A stretch of DNA of 40,880 nt from the IMG/VR virus record IMGVR_UViG_2563366819_000005. One strand, given 5' to 3'. This DNA is from a virus. Its lineage: Duplodnaviria > Heunggongvirae > Uroviricota > Caudoviricetes. Position numbers and translations under genes: made by a program. Shown here piece by piece: positions 1,553-17,944 of the stretch. The notes under the pieces were generated by a model. That model was given only the letters and a program-made list of their open reading frames with translations, did not search any database and was not told the DNA's origin. Position 1 is the stretch's first letter, and each line of letters begins with the position of its first letter.

Positions 1553-1741
1553 TCACGAGGACTGAAGTTTCTCGCAATTAAAATTTATCAGTTTTACTTT
1601 CTGCTCTCTGGAAACGCCTGCTTCTTTTTTACCTGAGAGCATTTTTTCGCATTCTGATTTCGTTAGTTTAGATTTTGAATATCTTGTCCAGTTAGTAGGA
1701 GTGCCACCTTCCTTTTCAATAGTAGCGGTAATTTTATACAT
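1553..1741 (-). CDS. ydaC: YdaC-like small phage protein (start chosen at MYKITATIEKEGG)
   Basis: ORF in the Rac position between xis and lar. Start is uncertain: the longest ORF begins at 1813 and would overlap lar. Confidence 0.5.
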   Translation of the reverse strand: MYKITATIEKEGGTPTNWTRYSKSKLTKSECEKMLSGKKEAGVSREQKVKLINFNCEKLQSS

Positions 1742-2794: not shown

Positions 2795-5387
2795 TTGCAT
2801 ATTCCTTAGCCCAGCGGGGCAGTGATAATGTCTTAATAGCTGGCCATTCATCGGTATTCAGGCAGTCAGACAGGGTTCGCAGATTGCGGTGATATTCCTG
2901 TTGACCTGCCAGTTTTGCTTCTTCGCCCATCATGAAAATTTCAACCGGATAACGTCCGCATTCAATAGTTGTGCTGGCAACCAGAAAAACGAAAGTTGGC
3001 TGCACTCCAAACTGTGCTTCATAACCGTCACTGTAGAATGCATCCTGAACGTGATAGCGGTAGTCGTAATAAGCGGTTTTGAATCGTTGAATATCCGCCG
3101 TAGTTTTCACGTCCATGATCCAGTGAAATTCAGGGATAATTTTGTCCGGACGGCACCGACACAAAATTCCTGTTTCAGGATCTTCCCAGTAAATTGATGA
3201 TTCAGCGTGTCCGGCGCTTTCAACAAGCCATTGCCCCAGCGGCAAAGCCATAACGCTTTGATACATGAGTTCAATTTTCCGGCCTTCTTCCGCAGTGATA
3301 ACCGTTTTTCCTGTGCTTGCGCATTCCATCAGAAACGCTTTCTCTTCTTCTTTTCCGGCGTTTGTACGGCGGTTAAATTCAGGTGCTACGATAAAGCGGT
3401 TACTGAATTCTTCCGGTTCAAGTACCCGGCAGTGGAAAGCGGTTCCTAAATCGAGCGTTTTTGTCTTTGTGGTGTCCACGGGGGCATTTTTACGCCACAA
3501 ATATAGTGCCGGAGTATCAGCAATGTCATCGAGCTGAGACTTACTGACACCGGGACCCGCGTGGTAATTCTCATTCGAAATTCCGTAATAAATACCTGGC
3601 TCTATGTCTTCTACGATTACGGGATCTGCGACTTCGCCAGTTTCATCACTGCAATCGCGATGCGGATCGCTGCCAGCATTCTCATTGTGCGGATGTTCAG
3701 CGCCTTCCATTTCCTCCGGATCATTTTCCTTAGCTTCAACCTGACTCTCTTCATCGAATGTTTCCTGGTATGTTGCGTCGCCCATCACCGCACCACAGTC
3801 AGGGCAGTTATCCCCGCCAGTCTGGCCGCAGGCATTGCAGGCTATTTCCGGTTCCTGTTGCACTACTGGCTCAGGTTGATTCATATCTGGTCTGGTTTTT
3901 TCCGTTTCTGGCTGGTTCTGGTACACACAATCGCGAGTCTGGATCCCCTTTACCCATTTCGGATCGTTCGGGTCGCTAATTCCGTCAACAAATTCACCAC
4001 GTGATGCAGCAAGCAATTTATCGGCATCGACAGGATTTTTTGATGGAATGTTTTTCCGGGCTTCATGGAGTTCTGCCCGCAGTTCCTGATATTTCGCATC
4101 AACAGAATTTACCTGTGACTGAGCATCCAGCGGCTGCGTGTCCTGATGATGTTCAGTTGCGTCCGGTTCCATTGTTTCAGCCTCTCCCTGTTCAACTGCC
4201 GTTGTTCCAGATGGTTGCGGTTTTTCTTCATCATCCTGTTTTCCTTCTTCTGTTACTCGCTGCGGCATCGGGGCAGAGGAGCGACCGCAGGCAATATCCA
4301 CGATTTCCGGATCAGGGTTGGCATGATCGGTTTCAGTCAGTACTTTGTTCAGATATTCAGTGACGTGCGCGGGGATGACCTCGATCCCAATTGGTGCTTC
4401 TTTTACGGACGCAACCACGATGGCGCGGGAATAATCCAGCCCGCCAGGCATGGTGATGAATTTGTCGCGGAAAACAGAAAAGGGCGGTTTATTTTCAGCG
4501 ATAATTTCCTCAATGCGTTTAGCGTGTGCCGGATGAAGGTTATAGATGTCCAGATCCATTGAACGGGCCAGTACGCCAGTGGCTACGTCGCGCGCCAGTG
4601 ACGTCAGATCGTGTACGAAACCTTCGCCGCGATCGGTGAGGTTTCCGCCGCCAGCATTAGCACCGGAAGCCGTGCGAGTGATGTGTGAAACACGATTACC
4701 CTTCATCCACTCTTTTGTCAGCAGTCCTCGATCGGTGTAGTCAGCGTTCAGGTATGCTTCGAAAAAAGCAGTTATCAGTCCCAGGTTTGAATGACCAGGA
4801 TTAGGGAAAACTTTGTCAGTGTCACGAACCAGTTTGTGGAGATCGCGAATTTCCAGCGGGTCGAGCAGGCTGGTTTTGTGGGAAACAGCCAGGGCAGTAA
4901 CAGCCGGTAGTTCTTCAGCCCGAGCAATGTGTAATGCCTGGAGTCCGTCGCGTGAAACGTGCGTTACCGGTTTTTCGCTGCCGTGTTGAGCAAGCCAACG
5001 AATGGGCAGTTCCTGGCCAGAAATTGGGAGTAGCATATTCTCCTCAATCTCAGTCATGTCTTCGCCGTTGACGTTGGTATTGCCTTGATAGTGAGCGTTG
5101 TCTGGTGCTGCTCCCGGTTTTAGTTCCCATGTCATGGAGTCTTTGCTGAGTTGATAGCGTTCACTCCAGGTAAAATCGATCTCACCTTCAGCGGGCAGGT
5201 CATTAACGACAGGAAAATTCGTGGCAACAGCTTTAAAATAGCTGCTCAGTTTTTTACCTGACTTAACGATCAGGTAGTCCAGAGTGGCACAGGTCGATTC
5301 AAAATCGTTGCTTGCCCACAGGACGACGTCAGGTTCACCGGATGATTTTTTCGCTTTCCGTAACAGGAAGAGTGGTTTTGTGCTCAT
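2787..5387 (-). CDS. recE: RecE exonuclease VIII (866 aa)
   Basis: 866-aa ORF beginning [32 protein letters not shown], with a C-terminal nuclease region. Length and synteny with recT match Rac RecE. Confidence 0.95.
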
Positions 5388-7456: not shown

Positions 7457-7625
7457 CTTATCTATCCCCTTAACGCCGGGTGGCGGAACTAACTGCTGCA
7501 CTGCAAAATTTGAATCCCGCCGTCATGTTCATACGCCTCGGGCTGGCTACTTAACCCCTGACCACTGCCTGGTAACTCGAAGTATTGCCCGGCGTTCTGT
7601 GGGGCGGGGTGGGTTGGTAGGTATA

Positions 7626-7670
7626 TAATGTACTTTGTGTTCATTATTGTAAAGTACTTTAAGTACATTT
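7626..7670. promoter_or_regulatory. OL-like operator cluster: GTAC-core sites (aatGTACttt, perfect palindrome AAAGTACTTT, aaGTACatt) over a candidate leftward promoter
   Basis: Three related sites within 45 bp at roughly 24-bp spacing. On the minus strand TTTACA and a TATATA/CATTAT -10-like element fall in the same stretch. Located just past the 3' end of the repressor gene, upstream of ydaG. Confidence 0.4.
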
Positions 7671-7743
7671 TATGTATAAAAAAATGAGACGGGATAAAGT
7701 GAAGCACAAACCCGGAGGGGGACGCTACCGGATTTATGCTGGT

Positions 7744-8163
7744 TTAAGAGGCTTTTTGTTTTTTCTTTCGTGCTAACTCTTCGTAAATTGCATTGTACTT
7801 CTGTTTTTTCTCCTCAAGAGTTTTTAAAAGTTCATCTGTCTCACTGTCAGGGAGCTCGTCCAGAAGGTCAATGATGATTTTTTGTCTTGGATTTAACTCC
7901 TGATAGAAACGTATCTGTCCACTTTCTTCTGTATCCTCTCCCAAAAGATAGGTTGGTGTTGTTCCAATGAGTGTTGCTAATTCCCTTAATTTCTCTCGGC
8001 GAGGAATTGTTTCACCATTAAACCATTTGCTAACCGCTTTTGGTGTTAATTTCATTCGACGGGCAATTTCTGCCTGCCTTCCATGTTGTTCATAACCAGC
8101 GTTTTCACAGGCTAGCGCAAGCCTACTGGCGAACTCTTTACGCGCTTTATCTTCATGAACCAT
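7744..8163 (-). CDS. racR: CI-type prophage repressor (XRE-family HTH), RacR-like
   Basis: HTH segment GRQAEIARRMKLTPKAVSKWFNGETIPRREKLRELATLIGTTPTYLLG. Divergent from a Cro-like gene and syntenic with Rac racR. Exact identity to K-12 RacR not verified. Confidence 0.65.
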   Translation of the reverse strand: MVHEDKARKEFASRLALACENAGYEQHGRQAEIARRMKLTPKAVSKWFNGETIPRREKLRELATLIGTTPTYLLGEDTEESGQIRFYQELNPRQKIIIDLLDELPDSETDELLKTLEEKKQKYNAIYEELARKKKQKAS

Positions 8164-8184
8164 AAGTTCAATGATATTCGCTCT

Positions 8185-8220
8185 TGAATGTACTGTCAGT
8201 TCTGTTATAGCATGTACTCA
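8185..8220. promoter_or_regulatory. OR-like operators between divergent repressor and ydaS: two aTGTACt sites 24 bp apart
   Basis: gaATGTACTgt (8186-8196) and gcATGTACTca (8210-8220) share the GTAC core with the sites at 7626-7670, in the 79-bp divergent intergenic region. Confidence 0.4.
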
Positions 8221-8242
8221 AAGTTCACATTGTGAGGGTGAT

Positions 8243-8497
8243 ATGAACCAGAAAACACTTGAAGATGTAATCAAAACTGTTCGCGTTTCTGTTGTGGCCG
8301 ACGTTTGTGGTGTCAGCCAAAGAGCAATCTACAAATGGATGGATAACGGAAAATTGCCTCGCACAGAATATACCGGCGAAACAAATTACGCTGAAAAAAT
8401 CGCTCATGCATCAAACGGATTATTTTCTGCCGATGCAATTTTAACTATTGGCAGAAATAAAACTACTACGAAAAAGCTGATGGGAGTTGATTCATGA
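8243..8497 (+). CDS. ydaS: YdaS-like Cro/CI-family DNA-binding protein (putative toxin or antitoxin)
   Basis: Divergent from the repressor and translationally coupled (ATGA) to ydaT. GAGGGTG SD before the ATG at 8243. The longest ORF starts at 8171. Confidence 0.65.
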   Translation: MNQKTLEDVIKTVRVSVVADVCGVSQRAIYKWMDNGKLPRTEYTGETNYAEKIAHASNGLFSADAILTIGRNKTTTKKLMGVDS

Positions 8498-8916
8498 AAA
8501 TCAAGCATGAGCACATCGAATCAGTGTTGTTAGCCCTGGCAGCCGAAAAAGGGCAGGCGTGGGTCGCTAACGCAATTACTGAAGAATATCTGCGCCAGGG
8601 GGGCGGCGAATTGCCCCTGGTACCAGGCAAGGACTGGAACAATCAGCAGAATATCTATCATCGTTGGTTGAAAGGTGAAACGAATGCGCAAAGGGAAAAA
8701 ATTCAGAAACTGATCCCTGCGGTTCTGGCAATTCTTCCTCGCGAGCTGCGTCACCGACTCTGCATCTTCGATACCCTGGAACGCCGTGCATTACTGGCGG
8801 CACAGGATGCACTGAGTACGGCAATTGATGCGCATGATGATGCAGTCCAGGCCGTTTACCGTAAAGCACATTTCAGCGGCGGCGGTTCTCCTAGCGATTC
8901 TGTCGTAGTGCATTGA
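8494..8916 (+). CDS. ydaT: YdaT-like protein (140 aa)
   Basis: MKIKHEHIESVLLALAAEKGQAWVANAITEEYLRQGGGELPLVPGKDW... 140 aa, as for Rac YdaT. Confidence 0.8.
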   Translation: MKIKHEHIESVLLALAAEKGQAWVANAITEEYLRQGGGELPLVPGKDWNNQQNIYHRWLKGETNAQREKIQKLIPAVLAILPRELRHRLCIFDTLERRALLAAQDALSTAIDAHDDAVQAVYRKAHFSGGGSPSDSVVVH

Positions 8917-11803: not shown

Positions 11804-11823
11804 AAAGCCTCCTAGGAGGCTTT
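11804..11823. terminator. 20-bp perfect palindrome AAAGCCTCCTAGGAGGCTTT; candidate bidirectional terminator between convergent genes
   Basis: Perfect inverted repeat flanked by A/T-rich sequence. Contains the stop codon of the methyltransferase gene. Confidence 0.4.
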
Positions 11824-12852
11824 GATTATATTAAGCAAATGTTTTCCAATCGTTTCAGACATCTTCGGAGGGACCGCATTTCCTATTTGACGAGCCCGAG
11901 ATTGCAAAGAACCAATAAATTTATAATCCAAAGGAAATGTTTGTAGACACGCTGCTTCACGAACCGATATTGCTCGATTTTGTGTTGGATGTCCAAAACG
12001 TCCATTTGAATAGCTAATACAACGAGTTGTTAGTCCGCTGGCTGGTTTGTCCCAACTCAAACGTCCATATACGTCTGTATGCCCTTTATGGTTACGATGG
12101 CATTCTAAAATCAATTCATCTGGCCAAAATTCTCGACTTCCACCTTCAGGAGTGCATTTTATTCTACGTAAATTAAGCTCTGATAAGCGTGCAGCTTCAT
12201 GATCAGGAATACTATTATGCTTTTCTCCTGCTTCTATCTTCGGTAAATTAGCGATCCAGTCCTTTACTGTTGAATAGGGAGTATTTCCAACCCCATGTGT
12301 AGGAGAAGGCAATGCGACATAAAAATCCTTGGATGCAATGAGCACTAATCTTTCTCGCGTCTGTGGTACACCGTACCACGCAGCTGGCATTACTTTATAA
12401 TCTACACTATATCCCTTTGATGAAAGCATTTCTAAAAACATCATGAATGTTCCTTCATTTTTGTTAAACTTTTGCATTCCTGGCACGTTTTCAACAAAAA
12501 TAAAATCAGGCATATAATGCTCTACAAAGCGACTGAATTCCTTTAATAGATCTAATCGTGGATCATCATTTTTCTTATTTGAGTTTTGCTTAGAGTACGG
12601 TTGACAAGGCGCACATCCTGAAAAAAGAATGTAATCATTACGATGTTTTTTTACTAACTTGTTTATGGCATTGTTGTCGATTAACCTAATGTCCGAGTTA
12701 ATAAAAGCAGCCTGCGGGAAATTTGCACGAAATGAACTGGCTGCATCAACGTCGAAATCGAGGCCAAAAACAATATCCATTCCAGCTTGATGGAAACCTT
12801 GGCTGGTTCCACCACAACCGGAAAAGAAGTCAAACACTTTGATTTTTTTCAT
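11812..12852 (-). CDS. DNA (cytosine-5)-methyltransferase (346 aa from ATG at 12852)
   Basis: C5-MTase motifs in order: FDFFSGCGG (motif I), GCAPCQPYS (motif IV PCQ, catalytic Cys), FVENVPGM (motif VI ENV), QTRERLVLIA (motif VIII), GNAVPP (motif X). GAGGG SD before the ATG. Confidence 0.85.
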   Translation of the reverse strand: MKKIKVFDFFSGCGGTSQGFHQAGMDIVFGLDFDVDAASSFRANFPQAAFINSDIRLIDNNAINKLVKKHRNDYILFSGCAPCQPYSKQNSNKKNDDPRLDLLKEFSRFVEHYMPDFIFVENVPGMQKFNKNEGTFMMFLEMLSSKGYSVDYKVMPAAWYGVPQTRERLVLIASKDFYVALPSPTHGVGNTPYSTVKDWIANLPKIEAGEKHNSIPDHEAARLSELNLRRIKCTPEGGSREFWPDELILECHRNHKGHTDVYGRLSWDKPASGLTTRCISYSNGRFGHPTQNRAISVREAACLQTFPLDYKFIGSLQSRARQIGNAVPPKMSETIGKHLLNIIKAS

Positions 12853-12875
12853 TTTTCCCTCTGCATCCAGAATCA

Positions 12876-14705
12876 CTACCTAATGATACCACGGTCAAGA
12901 GCCTGAGTAATTATTTTTCTTATTTTTATAAATTCAGGCAATTCATTTTTAAGTCTTGCGGTCATCATTTGTTGGAGGCAAAAAATTTCCTCTGCATTTA
13001 CTTCTTCTTTATCATACAGGTGTTGCGCTAATAATCTTATTTGATTCTTATACAGTTCTGGATCATTAGAACTCCAGGTCTGTGAATCAATTATTTCTTT
13101 TTCACTTGGCGTAATTGCCTTTTCAATGAGTAATTGTTCGGGAGTATCAAATGGTAAATACTGCACTTTATTGAATGCATACTCAAGCACTTGCCTTTTG
13201 AGTCTATTAGATTCTTGTTCATTTTTTTTGCCATTACTACCACTGGCATTGATAATTAACTCGCAACCATAATATTTGCACATTGTATTAACTAAATCAG
13301 CATCAGCAATTTCACTAATTCTTACTGGTTTTATTTTTTTGTTTTTATCACCATCAAGTAAAAACAAAATATCATTGCGTTCTACCACAGCGTAACTGGG
13401 AAGATGCTTGCTTAAAATGGTCTCCGAACCACCTGGTATATAACTTACACTAAATGATAAGCTTAATCTTTCATCATTTTTAATCGCTTTATCTATAATT
13501 GCTTTAGCTAATTTATCTTCTACAATTATTGTTTTCTTGTTAATATCATGCCCTAGCTCTATAAAAGCTTCATCCGGTGCTATATTTTGAACTATTTTAG
13601 CTGTTTCACTCTCTTCATCAAAAACAAATAATTTAATGGCATCTTTGGGAAGAGTGTTCACAATAACAGGAGAATGGGTTGATATTACCACTTGATGTTT
13701 TTTCTGCTCAACAATAGAGTACAGAACATCCATCATCCTTTTTTGTGCACCAGGGTGAAGTGAAACTTCTGGTTCGTCAAGAAGAATTAATGAATTAGGT
13801 TTGGCCGAATAAATATTGAGTATTAGTGAAACTATTGCAAATTCACCACTTCCAGCAAACGCTTCTGTATAGTTCAACTTATCAGTTGAAAGTAAAGCGG
13901 TTCCTCCTCTGGTTCCAAATAACCGATGCTCAAGAAATTTAATGACTTTATATTTTTTCCCTAATATAAATGAGACGTGCTCAACTAGTTCTGGCGCCAA
14001 GGTTATATTTTTAACAATGGTTTCCGCCCCCCAGAGTCTTAAATTACTTAGCTTTTCATCAAAAGCTTTCTTTATATATTTAGATTTGCTTCTGATATAG
14101 TCTTGCTTTGTAATTAATACACCACTCTTCTTCTTTCTTAATTTAAAATCAGAGTGATACATACATCTATCAAATGCACTTATTTCCGATCTGAAATCTA
14201 GGAAAACCAATCCCTTCTTGATTTTTTTCCATCTGGTTGCATTACTATTAGCACCCAGATCATCCGAAATACTCTCCATGTTATCACCAACAGATGGTCG
14301 ACTTGTTTCCCAATAATCGATTGTTTTCTTGGTAGCATTGATACGTGCTTGGAGTATTTCAACTAAACGGCCATCAGCATTTTTATATCCATATATATAT
14401 CTAGGTTTAAGAGAACTGCCATCAGCAAGTTTTAGGTCAGGAAACTCATCTGTTTCAGTTGTGAACCAATAACGAGTTATATTTTTACCATGTGGGCAAC
14501 CAAATAGCGCTTTGATAACAGAACTTTTATTAGTTCCATTTTTTCCTACTAAAGCCGTTATAGGGAACTGAAAATCGATCCTTGCATTCTGCTCTATATT
14601 TTTAAAGTATGGAAAACGGATATGTTGTATGAATGGTTCAAATTCACCGTTTTTTAACGCGCACTGGAGTGTTCGAATTTTGCTCTTGTATGCGGAAGTG
14701 CTCAT
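12876..14705 (-). CDS. OLD-family-like protein: N-terminal ABC-type ATPase plus putative C-terminal TOPRIM nuclease domain (609 aa)
   Basis: P-loop ALVGKNGTNKSS (GxNGxxKS type as in RecF/OLD), Walker B SLILLDEPEVSLHP, H-loop ISTHSP. C-terminal IIVEDKLAKAII followed about 55 aa later by LFLLDGDKN, resembling the TOPRIM Glu and DxD motifs. Visibly AT-rich. Confidence 0.65.
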   Translation of the reverse strand: MSTSAYKSKIRTLQCALKNGEFEPFIQHIRFPYFKNIEQNARIDFQFPITALVGKNGTNKSSVIKALFGCPHGKNITRYWFTTETDEFPDLKLADGSSLKPRYIYGYKNADGRLVEILQARINATKKTIDYWETSRPSVGDNMESISDDLGANSNATRWKKIKKGLVFLDFRSEISAFDRCMYHSDFKLRKKKSGVLITKQDYIRSKSKYIKKAFDEKLSNLRLWGAETIVKNITLAPELVEHVSFILGKKYKVIKFLEHRLFGTRGGTALLSTDKLNYTEAFAGSGEFAIVSLILNIYSAKPNSLILLDEPEVSLHPGAQKRMMDVLYSIVEQKKHQVVISTHSPVIVNTLPKDAIKLFVFDEESETAKIVQNIAPDEAFIELGHDINKKTIIVEDKLAKAIIDKAIKNDERLSLSFSVSYIPGGSETILSKHLPSYAVVERNDILFLLDGDKNKKIKPVRISEIADADLVNTMCKYYGCELIINASGSNGKKNEQESNRLKRQVLEYAFNKVQYLPFDTPEQLLIEKAITPSEKEIIDSQTWSSNDPELYKNQIRLLAQHLYDKEEVNAEEIFCLQQMMTARLKNELPEFIKIRKIITQALDRGIIR

Positions 14706-17353: not shown

Positions 17354-17944
17354 GGGCTGGTTTATTGTATGCCAAATGATTATTAAAAAGGTTGTGTTAA
17401 TAACAAAATCCGAAATAATATGCCTGCATATTTTTATCTTGCTTATATTCTGCATATTGTGCATAGCAGGCTCATCCCTGCAATCAAAACTGTATGATGA
17501 GTATTTTTTGTTTTCCTTTTTTCCAGTCATCTGATGATGACCTGCTTCTTTTTAATCCGGATCGACATCAGTTTTTTAAGATAATTCCTGCGAGTTATAT
17601 GCATAAATACCACAAACTCCGCATTTTATGTGGTTGGGAGTTGCCGGGCGCGCAGTGAGTTTGCTAAGAAAACTCCTGCATGGTGAATCCCCCTGTGCGG
17701 TGGGGTGATACCATTAACCTTTTCTGTCGCCGACAGGTATCACGAACATTTTGTTCACCGGGAGGCACCCGGCACCATGCACTTCAATAGATTCTCTCCA
17801 CATTATGGATATTCTTTCAGAATATCCCACGCAGACTTTGTGTAAATGTTAACAAATGTGCGTTTTATTTGATCTGATTCGCTGTTTGAGCGTCCAAAAC
17901 AACGGTATATATAATCCTTTACTATATGACATATGTGAGGAAAA

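Follow-up and report, generated by a model that had tools for sequence, protein, structure and literature searches.

The immunity region of phage HK022 (GenBank X16093; Oberto 1989 and Carlson & Little 1993, as cited in PMC8053113) is the closest described counterpart of the locus examined here, and we compare against it through GenBank feature tables and PMC8053113. In the account given there, which cites Carlson & Little 1993, HK022 CI binds adjacent operators at OR and at OL cooperatively and loops OL to OR. Short CI-like repressors that lack an S24 domain also run OR/OL switches, for example PaaR2 of CP-933P (an octamer with a leaderless mRNA; PMC8630535) and RacR of K-12 Rac (an octamer; PMC11014345). 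Leaderless repressor mRNAs have been shown for lambda cI, PaaR2, and RacR (PMC8630535, PMC9638921). When RacR is lost or perturbed in K-12, the genes ydaG, ydaF, kilR, ydaE, racC, recE/T, and ralR are derepressed (PMC11014345; bioRxiv 10.64898/2026.09.06.749655).

We find that a 40,880-nucleotide stretch of viral DNA (hereafter, the window) has the layout of a lambda-like CI/Cro switch, with divergent promoters PRM and PR sharing operators and a second operator set at the leftward promoter PL. The repeat unit is a 15-bp dyad, TGWAC-N5-GTWCA, present in five copies, two to the left and three to the right of the repressor gene. The 40.9-kb window contains just five matches to the pattern WGWACN5GTWCH, all of them around this gene (10 strand-hits versus 1.13 expected; the count was attained in 0 of 100 dinucleotide-preserving shuffles). 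It is highly probable, judging from sequence, that the five dyads are the repressor binding sites of an ordinary lambda-style lysogeny switch homologous to that of HK022.

All five operators were located by pattern match and placed on the HK022 locus (L001). On the left, OL1 (TGTACTTTGTGTTCA, 7629..7643) aligns to the HK022 oL site at L001:606-620 and OL2 (AGTACTTTAAGTACA, 7653..7667) to that at L001:630-644. On the right, OR3 (TGAACCATAAGTTCA, 8156..8170) is a perfect dyad, identical to the annotated HK022 oR site at L001:1405-1419, while OR2 (TGTACTGTCAGTTCT, 8189..8203) and OR1 (TGTACTCAAAGTTCA, 8213..8227) align to the oR sites at L001:1438-1452 and L001:1462-1476. The partner half-sites of OL1, OR2, and OR1 read GTTCA or GTTCT. 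OL1 and OL2 are 24 bp apart, OR3 and OR2 33 bp, and OR2 and OR1 24 bp. The OL cluster is located 77-115 bp beyond the repressor stop codon (7744-7746), and about 560 bp (~0.56 kb) separate OL from OR.

The correspondence with HK022 covers operator sequence, spacing, and promoter overlap. Both loci use the 15-bp dyad TGWAC-N5-GTWCA, the window OR3 is identical to HK022 OR3/OR1, and the spacings are equal (606/630 and 1405/1438/1462 in HK022; 7629/7653 and 8156/8189/8213 in the window). Each window site aligns with an annotated oL or oR site and with the pL and pR hexamers of X16093 and of HK75. The initial annotation had likened the region to the OR/OL layout of lambda; the comparison bears this out, because the clusters align base for base with the two oL sites, the three oR sites, and the pL/pR hexamers of X16093. 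The overlaps of operators with the PL -10/-35, the PR -35/-10, and the PRM -35/start are likewise shared. DNA identity to HK022 is 82% in the OL block and 70% in the block spanning the repressor N-terminal domain, OR, and cro. HK022 differs in having an OL3 element, an OFR downstream of cro (L001:1729; L002:1674 in HK75), a Nun gene, and put sites, all absent from the window. A pattern scan of the window found neither an OFR-type dyad after cro nor a further dyad left of OL2, and the OL3-type GTTCA...TGAAC element of long-form loci is absent from the window's cassette. The window's flanks are also of Rac type, unlike those of HK022, with ydaG/ydaF on the left and ydaT replacing cII on the right.

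The initial annotation had anticipated a leftward promoter beyond the repressor 3' end, and we find a sigma-70-like candidate there by consensus scan. This putative early promoter, PL (7625..7653, minus strand), has a -35 hexamer TTTACA (7653-7648), a 17-bp spacer, and a -10 hexamer CATTAT (7630-7625). It is overlapped by both left operators: OL1 lies across the -10 hexamer and spacer, and OL2 adjoins the -35 hexamer. The position of PL relative to these operators matches that of the annotated HK022 pL hexamers, and its predicted start, near 7618, is oriented toward ydaG-ydaF-kilR-racC-recET. At the same place, K-12 Rac has an equivalent promoter that is strong, leftward, and flanked by RacR-type boxes. 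By analogy with K-12 Rac, to which the left arm is 99.6% identical up to 7619, PL would drive ydaG-ydaF and beyond. A sieB gene lies antisense between PL and recET. Searches for a put-like or other RNA in the PL leader gave no Rfam match in the region, and the fold of the leader was not significant (z = -1.8).

The divergent promoters lie among the right operators. The consensus scan places a putative repressor maintenance promoter, PRM, at 8171..8199 on the minus strand (10 of 12 matches), with -35 CTGACA (8199-8194, in OR2), a 17-bp spacer, and -10 TATCAT (8176-8171); the -10 of PM is labelled at the same place for HK022 cI (loopometer supplement). Only 7 nt separate the end of this -10 from the repressor ATG (8163-8161), which lies under OR3 together with the predicted PRM start. 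Thus, PRM would yield a leaderless or near-leaderless repressor mRNA. The rightward early promoter PR (8184..8213, plus strand) was identified by eye and by comparing its placement with that of the annotated HK022 pR hexamers. Its -35 is TTGAAT (8184-8189). For the -10 there are two candidates, TATAGC (8206-8211, with TG in front of it at 8203-8204) and TAGCAT (8208-8213), and the exact choice is uncertain. The -10 is poor, and PR falls below the threshold of the consensus scan. OR2 falls within the PR spacer and overlies the -35 hexamer of PRM, and OR1 covers the edge of the PR -10 and the start-site region. From this arrangement, PR would drive cro-ydaT and the replication genes.

Immediately after the repressor stop codon, RNA folding detects a stable hairpin (7703..7740, minus strand) followed by a moderately U-rich tail. 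Its folding energy (-20.5 kcal/mol, z = -4.8) was equalled by 0 of 200 shuffles, and a simple terminator scan did not call it. The hairpin probably terminates transcripts from PRM before they reach OL.

Lambda shares with the window a divergent PRM/PR pair with three operators, PL operators beyond the repressor gene, and a 24-bp spacing of the promoter-proximal pair. In both, OR2 overlies the -35 of PRM, and the repressor mRNA is leaderless (predicted in the window). The operators themselves are unrelated: 15-bp dyads with a 5-bp spacer in the window, 17-bp sites in lambda. The window has two OL sites where lambda has three, its OR2-OR3 step is 33 bp (23 bp in lambda), and its OL-OR distance is ~0.56 kb (2.3 kb in lambda). 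The S24 domain of the lambda repressor is also missing from the window repressor.

The repressor gene (7744..8163, minus strand) encodes 139 amino acids with a Pfam HTH_3 match (1.8e-9). Alignment and an AF2 model indicate an HK022-CI-like helix-turn-helix N-terminal domain followed by a short two-helix C-terminal domain. BLASTP finds 46% identity to HK022 CI (E = 9e-32), confined to residues 4-102. HK022 CI, at 235 amino acids, has an S24 (LexA-like) domain; the window repressor has instead the two-helix tail, of ~50 amino acids. Pfam detects only helix-turn-helix domains in it, and the S24 peptidase region is missing in the alignment. A sequence search of the PDB returned only P22 C2 and 434-type helix-turn-helix matches. 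Foldseek against the PDB returned only generic XRE-type matches (among them SinR, DdrO, and an arbitrium-phage repressor), none with E <= 1e-3. These searches assigned no family to the C-terminal domain. The protein was also considered as a RacR orthologue and rejected, since RacR is similar over the helix-turn-helix stretch only.

The recognition helix, TPKA[V/I]SKWFNGE (T40-E51), is invariant in short and long forms of the repressor except for V or I at position 44, which places the window one conservative residue from HK022. This helix is kept in eight homologues whose overall identity falls to 39-46%. These features suggest that the 139-amino acid repressor binds the five dyads. Without an S24 domain, its cooperativity, any OL-OR looping, and its induction must therefore differ from those of HK022 and lambda CI, and the cooperative pairwise binding and looping of those proteins cannot be assumed for a short-tailed repressor. 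No LexA box (CTGT-N8-ACAG) occurs anywhere in the window, and a non-exhaustive look identified no antirepressor.

Rightward of OR lies a cro-like gene for 84 amino acids, an HK022 Cro homologue (8243..8497, plus strand; 62% identity to HK022 Cro, E = 1e-34). The initial annotation had called it ydaS, a loose label: it is not a ydaS orthologue, and its similarity to K-12 YdaS is limited to the helix-turn-helix stretch (6 of 18 residues match, E = 0.028). Together, OL/PL, the repressor gene, OR, and cro form a swapped immunity cassette of 868 bp (7620..8487), as delimited by blastn against K-12 Rac: the DNA is 99.6% identical up to 7619 and 92.5% identical from 8488 on, with no match between. 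At the right edge is a YdaT box, TTGATT-N6-AATCAA (8487-8504), and the encoded YdaT is 94% identical to that of K-12. The cassette is found at >=80% coverage in 1047 of 5426 complete Escherichia coli genomes (19%), and at >=95% identity in about 1030 genomes. Near-identical cassettes also occur in records deposited as complete phages (vB_EcoS-666R9, -673R7, and -613R10, 99.9%; Tritos, 97%). By these alignments, the window is a very common Rac-like E. coli prophage, with K-12-type Rac DNA around an exchanged immunity cassette.

K-12 Rac thus shares with the window its prophage backbone, and also the position and architecture of the switch (PMC9638921, PMC11014345). Its operators are (T/A)TAGGC-n3-GCCTA(T/A), in contrast to the TGWAC-N5-GTWCA of the window. 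The immunity type is not that of K-12 Rac: the K-12-type boxes lie in locus L008, and the cassette has no DNA similarity to K-12. The two prophages should be heteroimmune. The literature on K-12 RacR does not transfer to the window, because the operators there are TAGGC-n3-GCCTA and the two proteins are not orthologous.

A lack of conservation in homologous immunity regions had been named in advance as grounds for refuting the proposed sites, and this test does not refute them. The sites recur in 11 related loci drawn from six genera; half-sites are retained there, and spacers and flanks have diverged. All five sites, arranged as OL1-24-OL2 and OR3-33-OR2-24-OR1, are present in HK022, HK75, Tritos, a Citrobacter phage, a Klebsiella phage, two Salmonella prophages, a metagenomic contig, and a Raoultella prophage. 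Two more phages, from Klebsiella and Providencia, have the OR triplet only; no OL was found in the flanks examined of loci L006 and L007. The 24-bp OR2-OR1 and 33-bp OR2-OR3 steps are identical in 12 of 12 loci, as is the presence of OR3 and of OR1. Both half-sites of OL1 are unchanged across eight diverged loci, and the AGTAC-N5-GTACA of OL2 shows no variation in any locus with an OL found. Invariant columns fall mostly in half-sites, at OL (20/20, versus 1/10 in spacers and 9/90 elsewhere) and at OR (25/30, versus 8/15 and 5/42), statistics that are partly circular because the sites in relatives were first located with the pattern.

The same conservation bears on what the unit of recognition is. 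The initial annotation described five sites of some 8-10 bp, roughly a-a/t-GTAC-t-t, in two clusters with a spacing of about 24 bp. The clusters are real, one in the divergent repressor/cro intergenic region and the other past the repressor 3' end, and the spacing recurs from 7629 to 7653 and from 8189 to 8213. The GTAC cores are also present, at 7630, 7654, 7663, 8190, and 8214, but they belong to a 15-bp dyad. The cores at 7654 and 7663 had been counted separately but together make up OL2, so that the five cores belong to four operators; OR3, which has no GTAC, was overlooked. It could still be held that each short site is bound alone, with AAAGTACTTT as the archetype. WGTACW and WWGTACWW are strongly enriched in the region (6 of the 20 WGTACW matches in the window lie within 7600-8242, with 0.31 expected; binomial P = 5e-7), and AATGTACT is present three times. 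However, such sites would ignore the conserved GTWCA-type partner exactly 5 bp from each core and would miss an operator identical to an annotated HK022 one. Orthologous half-sites alternate between TGTAC and TGAAC, changing the core from GTAC to GAAC; OR1, for example, has TGAAC in HK022 and TGTAC in the window. On this alignment, GTAC itself is not the conserved core. The A/T flanks are not conserved either, and the 10-bp palindrome, although present at 7651-7660, is incidental, reading AAAGTACCAA or AAAGTACCTA in relatives whose 15-bp dyad is intact. A sixth GTAC at 7795 (TGTACT, 7794), within the repressor coding sequence, has no partner half-site and is not a site. We thus regard independent short sites as very improbable. 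Reading AATGTACT as a direct repeat was likewise rejected, because relatives conserve the inverted partner half-sites. Chance or composition could also be invoked, since these are AT-rich intergenic regions in which short palindromes are common and GTAC might occur with no dedicated binding protein. The outcome of the shuffles, and the retention of site sequence, spacing, and promoter overlap across six genera whose flanks are unalignable, reduce this to a negligible likelihood.

Two further readings accept the dyads and differ on their use. The operators could be of genuine HK022 type but a non-functional relic, with control limited to silencing in a cryptic prophage. K-12 Rac is defective, and the window has no LexA box or S24 domain, hence no obvious induction route. 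Yet all five dyads are intact, as are the repressor and cro; about 1030 genomes have the cassette at >=95% identity, and near-identical copies sit in records deposited as complete phages. In K-12 Rac, defective though it is, the corresponding switch keeps toxic genes actively repressed (PMC5700373, PMC11014345). A relic is, in our estimation, improbable. Binding mainly by another regulator, such as the CII-like YdaT or a host factor, in place of the adjacent repressor and Cro, would be in keeping with the report that K-12 YdaT also binds within the racR-ydaS intergenic region (PMC11879457). Against this, the YdaT box at the right edge of the cassette is separate from the dyads and unlike them in sequence (PMC9986795), and the dyads go together with the HK022-type repressor N-terminal domain and Cro: HK022 has cII, no ydaT, and the same sites. 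This possibility appears extremely unlikely. With little doubt, we read the region from its sequence as the operator/promoter set of an HK022-specificity lambdoid immunity switch, carried on an 868-bp cassette in an otherwise K-12-Rac-like prophage.

The mechanism that we propose for this switch draws on homology and geometry, with the protein architecture as its demonstrated part. Dimers of the 139-amino acid helix-turn-helix repressor would recognize the 15-bp dyads. Occupation of OR1 and OR2, 24 bp apart center to center, would block PR and keep cro, ydaT, and the replication genes off; OR2, overlapping the -35 of the divergent PRM, may also stimulate that promoter. Excess repressor, or Cro, at OR3 would shut off repressor synthesis. 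On the left, OL1 and OL2 would lie over the -10 and next to the -35 of PL, which would read into ydaG-ydaF and probably onward through kilR-racC-recET-ralR-xis-int. The HK022-like Cro is expected to act on the same sites in the lytic direction. The short two-helix tail may serve as the repressor's oligomerization and induction domain, replacing the S24 autocleavage domain.

No new kind of regulatory element is revealed here. The non-routine feature is the repressor alone, a 139-amino acid protein in which a short helical tail replaces the self-cleaving S24 domain of HK022 CI. More tentatively, and with less than even confidence, we suggest that this is a widespread short-tailed repressor of HK022 specificity (~19% of complete E. 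coli genomes) that has lost a RecA-cleavable S24 domain, acquired a two-helix tail in its place, and retained the operator geometry of HK022 exactly. In that case, cooperativity and OL-OR looping have been rebuilt on an unrelated oligomerization module, and induction proceeds without RecA autocleavage, via an antirepressor, proteolysis, or Cro/YdaT dynamics. Resident prophages would then give cross-immunity to phages of the HK022 immunity type, which in turn could regulate them in trans. HK022-type cross-immunity, repressor control of the kilR/recET arm, and cooperativity and induction without S24 are now testable predictions.

Our results provide base-level operator and promoter coordinates for a cassette that is carried by about one-fifth of complete E. 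coli genomes and whose RefSeq label is only "helix-turn-helix protein". They also indicate that Rac-type prophages swap whole OL-repressor-OR-cro modules, whose sharp edges coincide with the PL start (left) and the YdaT box (right). By description, CP-933P of E. coli O157:H7 is a further Rac-like lambdoid prophage with a ~15-kDa CI-like HTH repressor (PaaR2) without S24 (PMC8630535). It shares with the window a leaderless repressor gene (predicted in the window), OR and OL sets, YdaT as CII equivalent, and the same YdaT box; its operators differ, being 18-bp palindromes with half-site GTTTAGTAA. In Salmonella relatives of the window repressor, as in CP-933P, a toxin-antitoxin cassette separates the repressor gene from OL. 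Where a higBA cassette or an ATPase gene has been inserted at this point, OL still lies next to PL.

The operator unit in the immunity region is a 15-bp dyad, TGWAC-N5-GTWCA, which is the form of the annotated HK022 and HK75 sites. We find five predicted operators: OL1 (7629-7643, TGTACTTTGTGTTCA), OL2 (7653-7667, AGTACTTTAAGTACA), OR3 (8156-8170, TGAACCATAAGTTCA), OR2 (8189-8203, TGTACTGTCAGTTCT), and OR1 (8213-8227, TGTACTCAAAGTTCA). A search of the whole 40.9 kb with WGWACN5GTWCH returns only these five places (10 strand-hits vs. 1.13 expected), and its count of 10 was equaled by 0 of 100 shuffles.

The initial annotation had described five GTAC-core sites in two clusters. GTAC is present at 7630, 7654, 7663, 7795, 8190, and 8214, and 6 of the 20 copies of WGTACW in the window lie within the 643 bp of 7600-8242 (0.31 expected; binomial P = 5e-7); the clustering is therefore real. 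The 24-bp steps it reported also exist (7629 to 7653 and 8189 to 8213), as does the 10-bp palindrome AAAGTACTTT (7651-7660). The unit, however, was misparsed. Because the true unit is the 15-bp dyad, each of the five reported GTAC cores is one half-site, and they represent four operators in all, two of the cores being the two halves of OL2; OR3, which carries GAAC cores, was missed. The palindrome arises by accident from the OL2 left half together with its spacer. Nor is GTAC the conserved core, as orthologous half-sites alternate between TGTAC and TGAAC.

The gene context is as first described. The repressor gene (7744-8163, minus strand) encodes a 139-aa helix-turn-helix protein, and a divergent plus-strand gene (8243-8497) encodes an 84-aa Cro homologue and is followed by ydaT. 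To the left lie ydaG, ydaF, sieB, and kilR.

Two parts of this region, the OL block and a block containing the repressor N-terminal domain, OR, and cro, share 70 to 82% DNA identity with the HK022 immunity region (distant blastn against phage records). GenBank X16093 (HK022) lists annotated repressor binding sites (two oL, three oR) together with pL and pR hexamers, and the HK75 record carries matching annotations. The five dyads occur at unchanged spacing (OL1-24-OL2; OR3-33-OR2-24-OR1) in HK022, HK75, and phage Tritos, which is 97% identical to the window over the immunity region. The full layout is also found in Citrobacter phage Omnitron, Klebsiella phage 2 LV-2017, two Salmonella prophages (short repressor, 62 to 65% identical to that of the window), a metagenomic contig (repressor 89% identical), and a Raoultella prophage with a long, S24-bearing repressor. 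Within the fetched flanks, Klebsiella RCIP0114 and Providencia PSTNGR2lys have the OR triplet only. In MAFFT alignments of diverged loci, invariant columns comprise 20 of 20 half-site, 1 of 10 spacer, and 9 of 90 other positions at OL, and 25 of 30, 8 of 15, and 5 of 42, respectively, at OR, figures that are partly circular because the relatives' sites were first located by the dyad pattern. The flanks of these relatives are unalignable, and the PL/OL block is nearly identical.

A promoter scan predicts PL as TTTACA-17-CATTAT (7653-7625, minus strand). Its placement relative to OL1 and OL2 equals that of the annotated HK022 pL; OL1 overlies the -10 and spacer, and OL2 adjoins the -35. The scan also predicts PRM as CTGACA-17-TATCAT (8199-8171, minus strand; 10 of 12 matches), with the -35 within OR2, and the HK022 PM -10 is labelled at the matching place in the loopometer supplement (PMC8053113). 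OR3 overlies the predicted PRM start and the repressor ATG. The PRM -10 ends 7 nt ahead of this ATG, and thus the predicted repressor mRNA would be leaderless or nearly so, as are those of lambda cI, PaaR2, and RacR (PMC8630535, PMC9638921). PR received no call from the promoter scan and was placed by homology with HK022 pR (-35 TTGAAT, 8184-8189, plus strand); its -10 is weak, being either TATAGC (8206-8211), with TG ahead of it, or TAGCAT (8208-8213). A stable hairpin directly 3' of the repressor stop codon, ahead of OL2 (7703-7740, minus strand; -20.5 kcal/mol, z = -4.8), was not called by a simple terminator scan; it probably terminates PRM transcription short of OL.

The lambda-like OR/OL reading of the initial annotation is thus supported, and dyad sequence, site number, spacing, promoter overlap, and homology of the repressor N-terminal domain and Cro support assignment of the region to the HK022 operator-specificity family. 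Unlike HK022, the window has no S24 C-terminal domain in its repressor and lacks both the OFR site and an OL3 element. The region would work like a lambda-type CI/Cro switch. HK022 CI is described as binding adjacent OR and OL sites cooperatively, with OL-OR looping (PMC8053113). By homology, the window repressor would repress PR from OR1 and OR2, repress PL from OL1 and OL2, and autoregulate via OR3, while Cro would act on the same five operators. The reading that departs most from known switches involves the short tail of the repressor and may include cross-immunity with phages of the HK022 type.

The repressor is a domain chimera, with an HK022-CI-like helix-turn-helix N-terminal domain and a two-helix tail; neither Pfam nor alignments detected an S24 peptidase domain. 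In the AlphaFold2 model (pLDDT 82.7, shallow alignment), residues 2-74 form a helix-turn-helix domain of five helices and residues 92-138 the two-helix tail; the linker between them (77-86) is of low confidence, and a short helix is modelled at 82-88. Foldseek searches with this model gave generic XRE-type matches only. Homologues in the protein database form two classes that share the N-terminal domain, one short (138-151 aa; E. coli and Salmonella) and one long and S24-bearing (235-240 aa; Raoultella, Klebsiella, and others). The recognition helix, TPKA(V/I)SKWFNGE, is invariant over short and long forms that are otherwise 39-46% identical, which fits the unchanged half-sites. Because the S24 domain is absent, dimerisation, cooperativity, looping, and induction must differ from those of HK022 and lambda CI; the window has no LexA box. 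PaaR2 and RacR, which are reported to be octameric (PMC8630535, PMC11014345), run OR/OL switches, and thus short CI-like repressors can do so.

OL keeps its position beside PL despite insertions between OL and the repressor gene. The Salmonella prophages carry a higB-higA toxin-antitoxin pair there (L010, 3553-4220; L011, 3588-4255), which parallels paaA2-parE2 behind paaR2 in CP-933P, and the Raoultella relative has a 480-aa AAA ATPase gene in the same slot. An extra inverted pair, AGTTCA...N(~17-20)...TGAACTT, lies ~25-60 bp beyond OL2 on the repressor-gene side in HK022, L004, L005, and the Raoultella relative. It is common to long (S24) repressor loci, was not found in the window or other short-repressor loci, and may correspond to the "OL3" element that PMC8053113 mentions for HK022.

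The window is a Rac-like lambdoid E. coli prophage, 100% identical to several sequenced strains, and its immunity region is 99.9% identical to that of vB_EcoS-666R9 and two siblings, whose records were deposited as phage genomes. Against K-12 MG1655 Rac, blastn identity is 99.6% as far as 7619 and resumes at 92.5% from 8488; the stretch 7620-8487 shows no similarity. Since the flanks match and the interior does not, 7620-8487 is a swapped immunity cassette; of 5426 complete E. coli genomes, 1047 carry it. The left junction coincides with the predicted PL start and the right with a YdaT box. This box (TTGATT-CATGAA-AATCAA, 8487-8504) is perfect, straddles the ydaT ATG (8494), and is the same as the published CP-933P site and one base off the K-12 box (PMC9986795, PMC11879457). 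YdaT and its K-12 counterpart are 94% identical. The cassette repressor and Cro are not orthologues of RacR and YdaS and resemble them only at the helix-turn-helix level; the window falls outside the K-12 RacR/YdaS immunity type.

How far PL would reach leftward is suggested by K-12 data, where depletion or perturbation of RacR induces ydaG, ydaF, kilR, ydaE, racC, recE/T, ralR, and xis/int (PMC11014345; bioRxiv 10.64898/2026.09.06.749655). No convincing minus-strand terminator was found between 7620 and recE in the window. K-12 Rac has a near-consensus leftward promoter, TTGACA-17-TATAGT, ~100 bp downstream of racR (L008, 3127-3170), flanked and overlapped by RacR-type boxes (TAGGCTATGCCTA, 3156-3168; TAGGTAATGCCTA, 3131-3143). 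It occupies the spot equivalent to the window PL, exactly at the mosaic junction, and is a candidate PL/OL of K-12 Rac; the RacR papers examined describe operators only within or next to the racR-ydaS intergenic region, one of which spans the racR start.

Elsewhere in the window, two adjacent minus-strand ORFs (11812-14705) resemble an inserted extra cassette (moron), possibly a defence system. They encode a 354-aa C-5 cytosine DNA methyltransferase (Pfam PF00145, E = 5e-61) and a 609-aa ABC/OLD-type AAA ATPase (best PADLOC matches HEC-04, ATPase-Toprim, AriA, and PtuA); the near-identical phage vB_EcoS-666R9 has other, smaller genes in their place. Rfam matches are RalA, the antitoxin sRNA of the RalR toxin (1557-1735, plus strand; 220 bits), and STnc100 (17648-17834, plus strand; 87 bits). 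STnc100 contains a one-mismatch dyad, CGAACATTTTGTTCA (17743-17757), which is probably due to chance.
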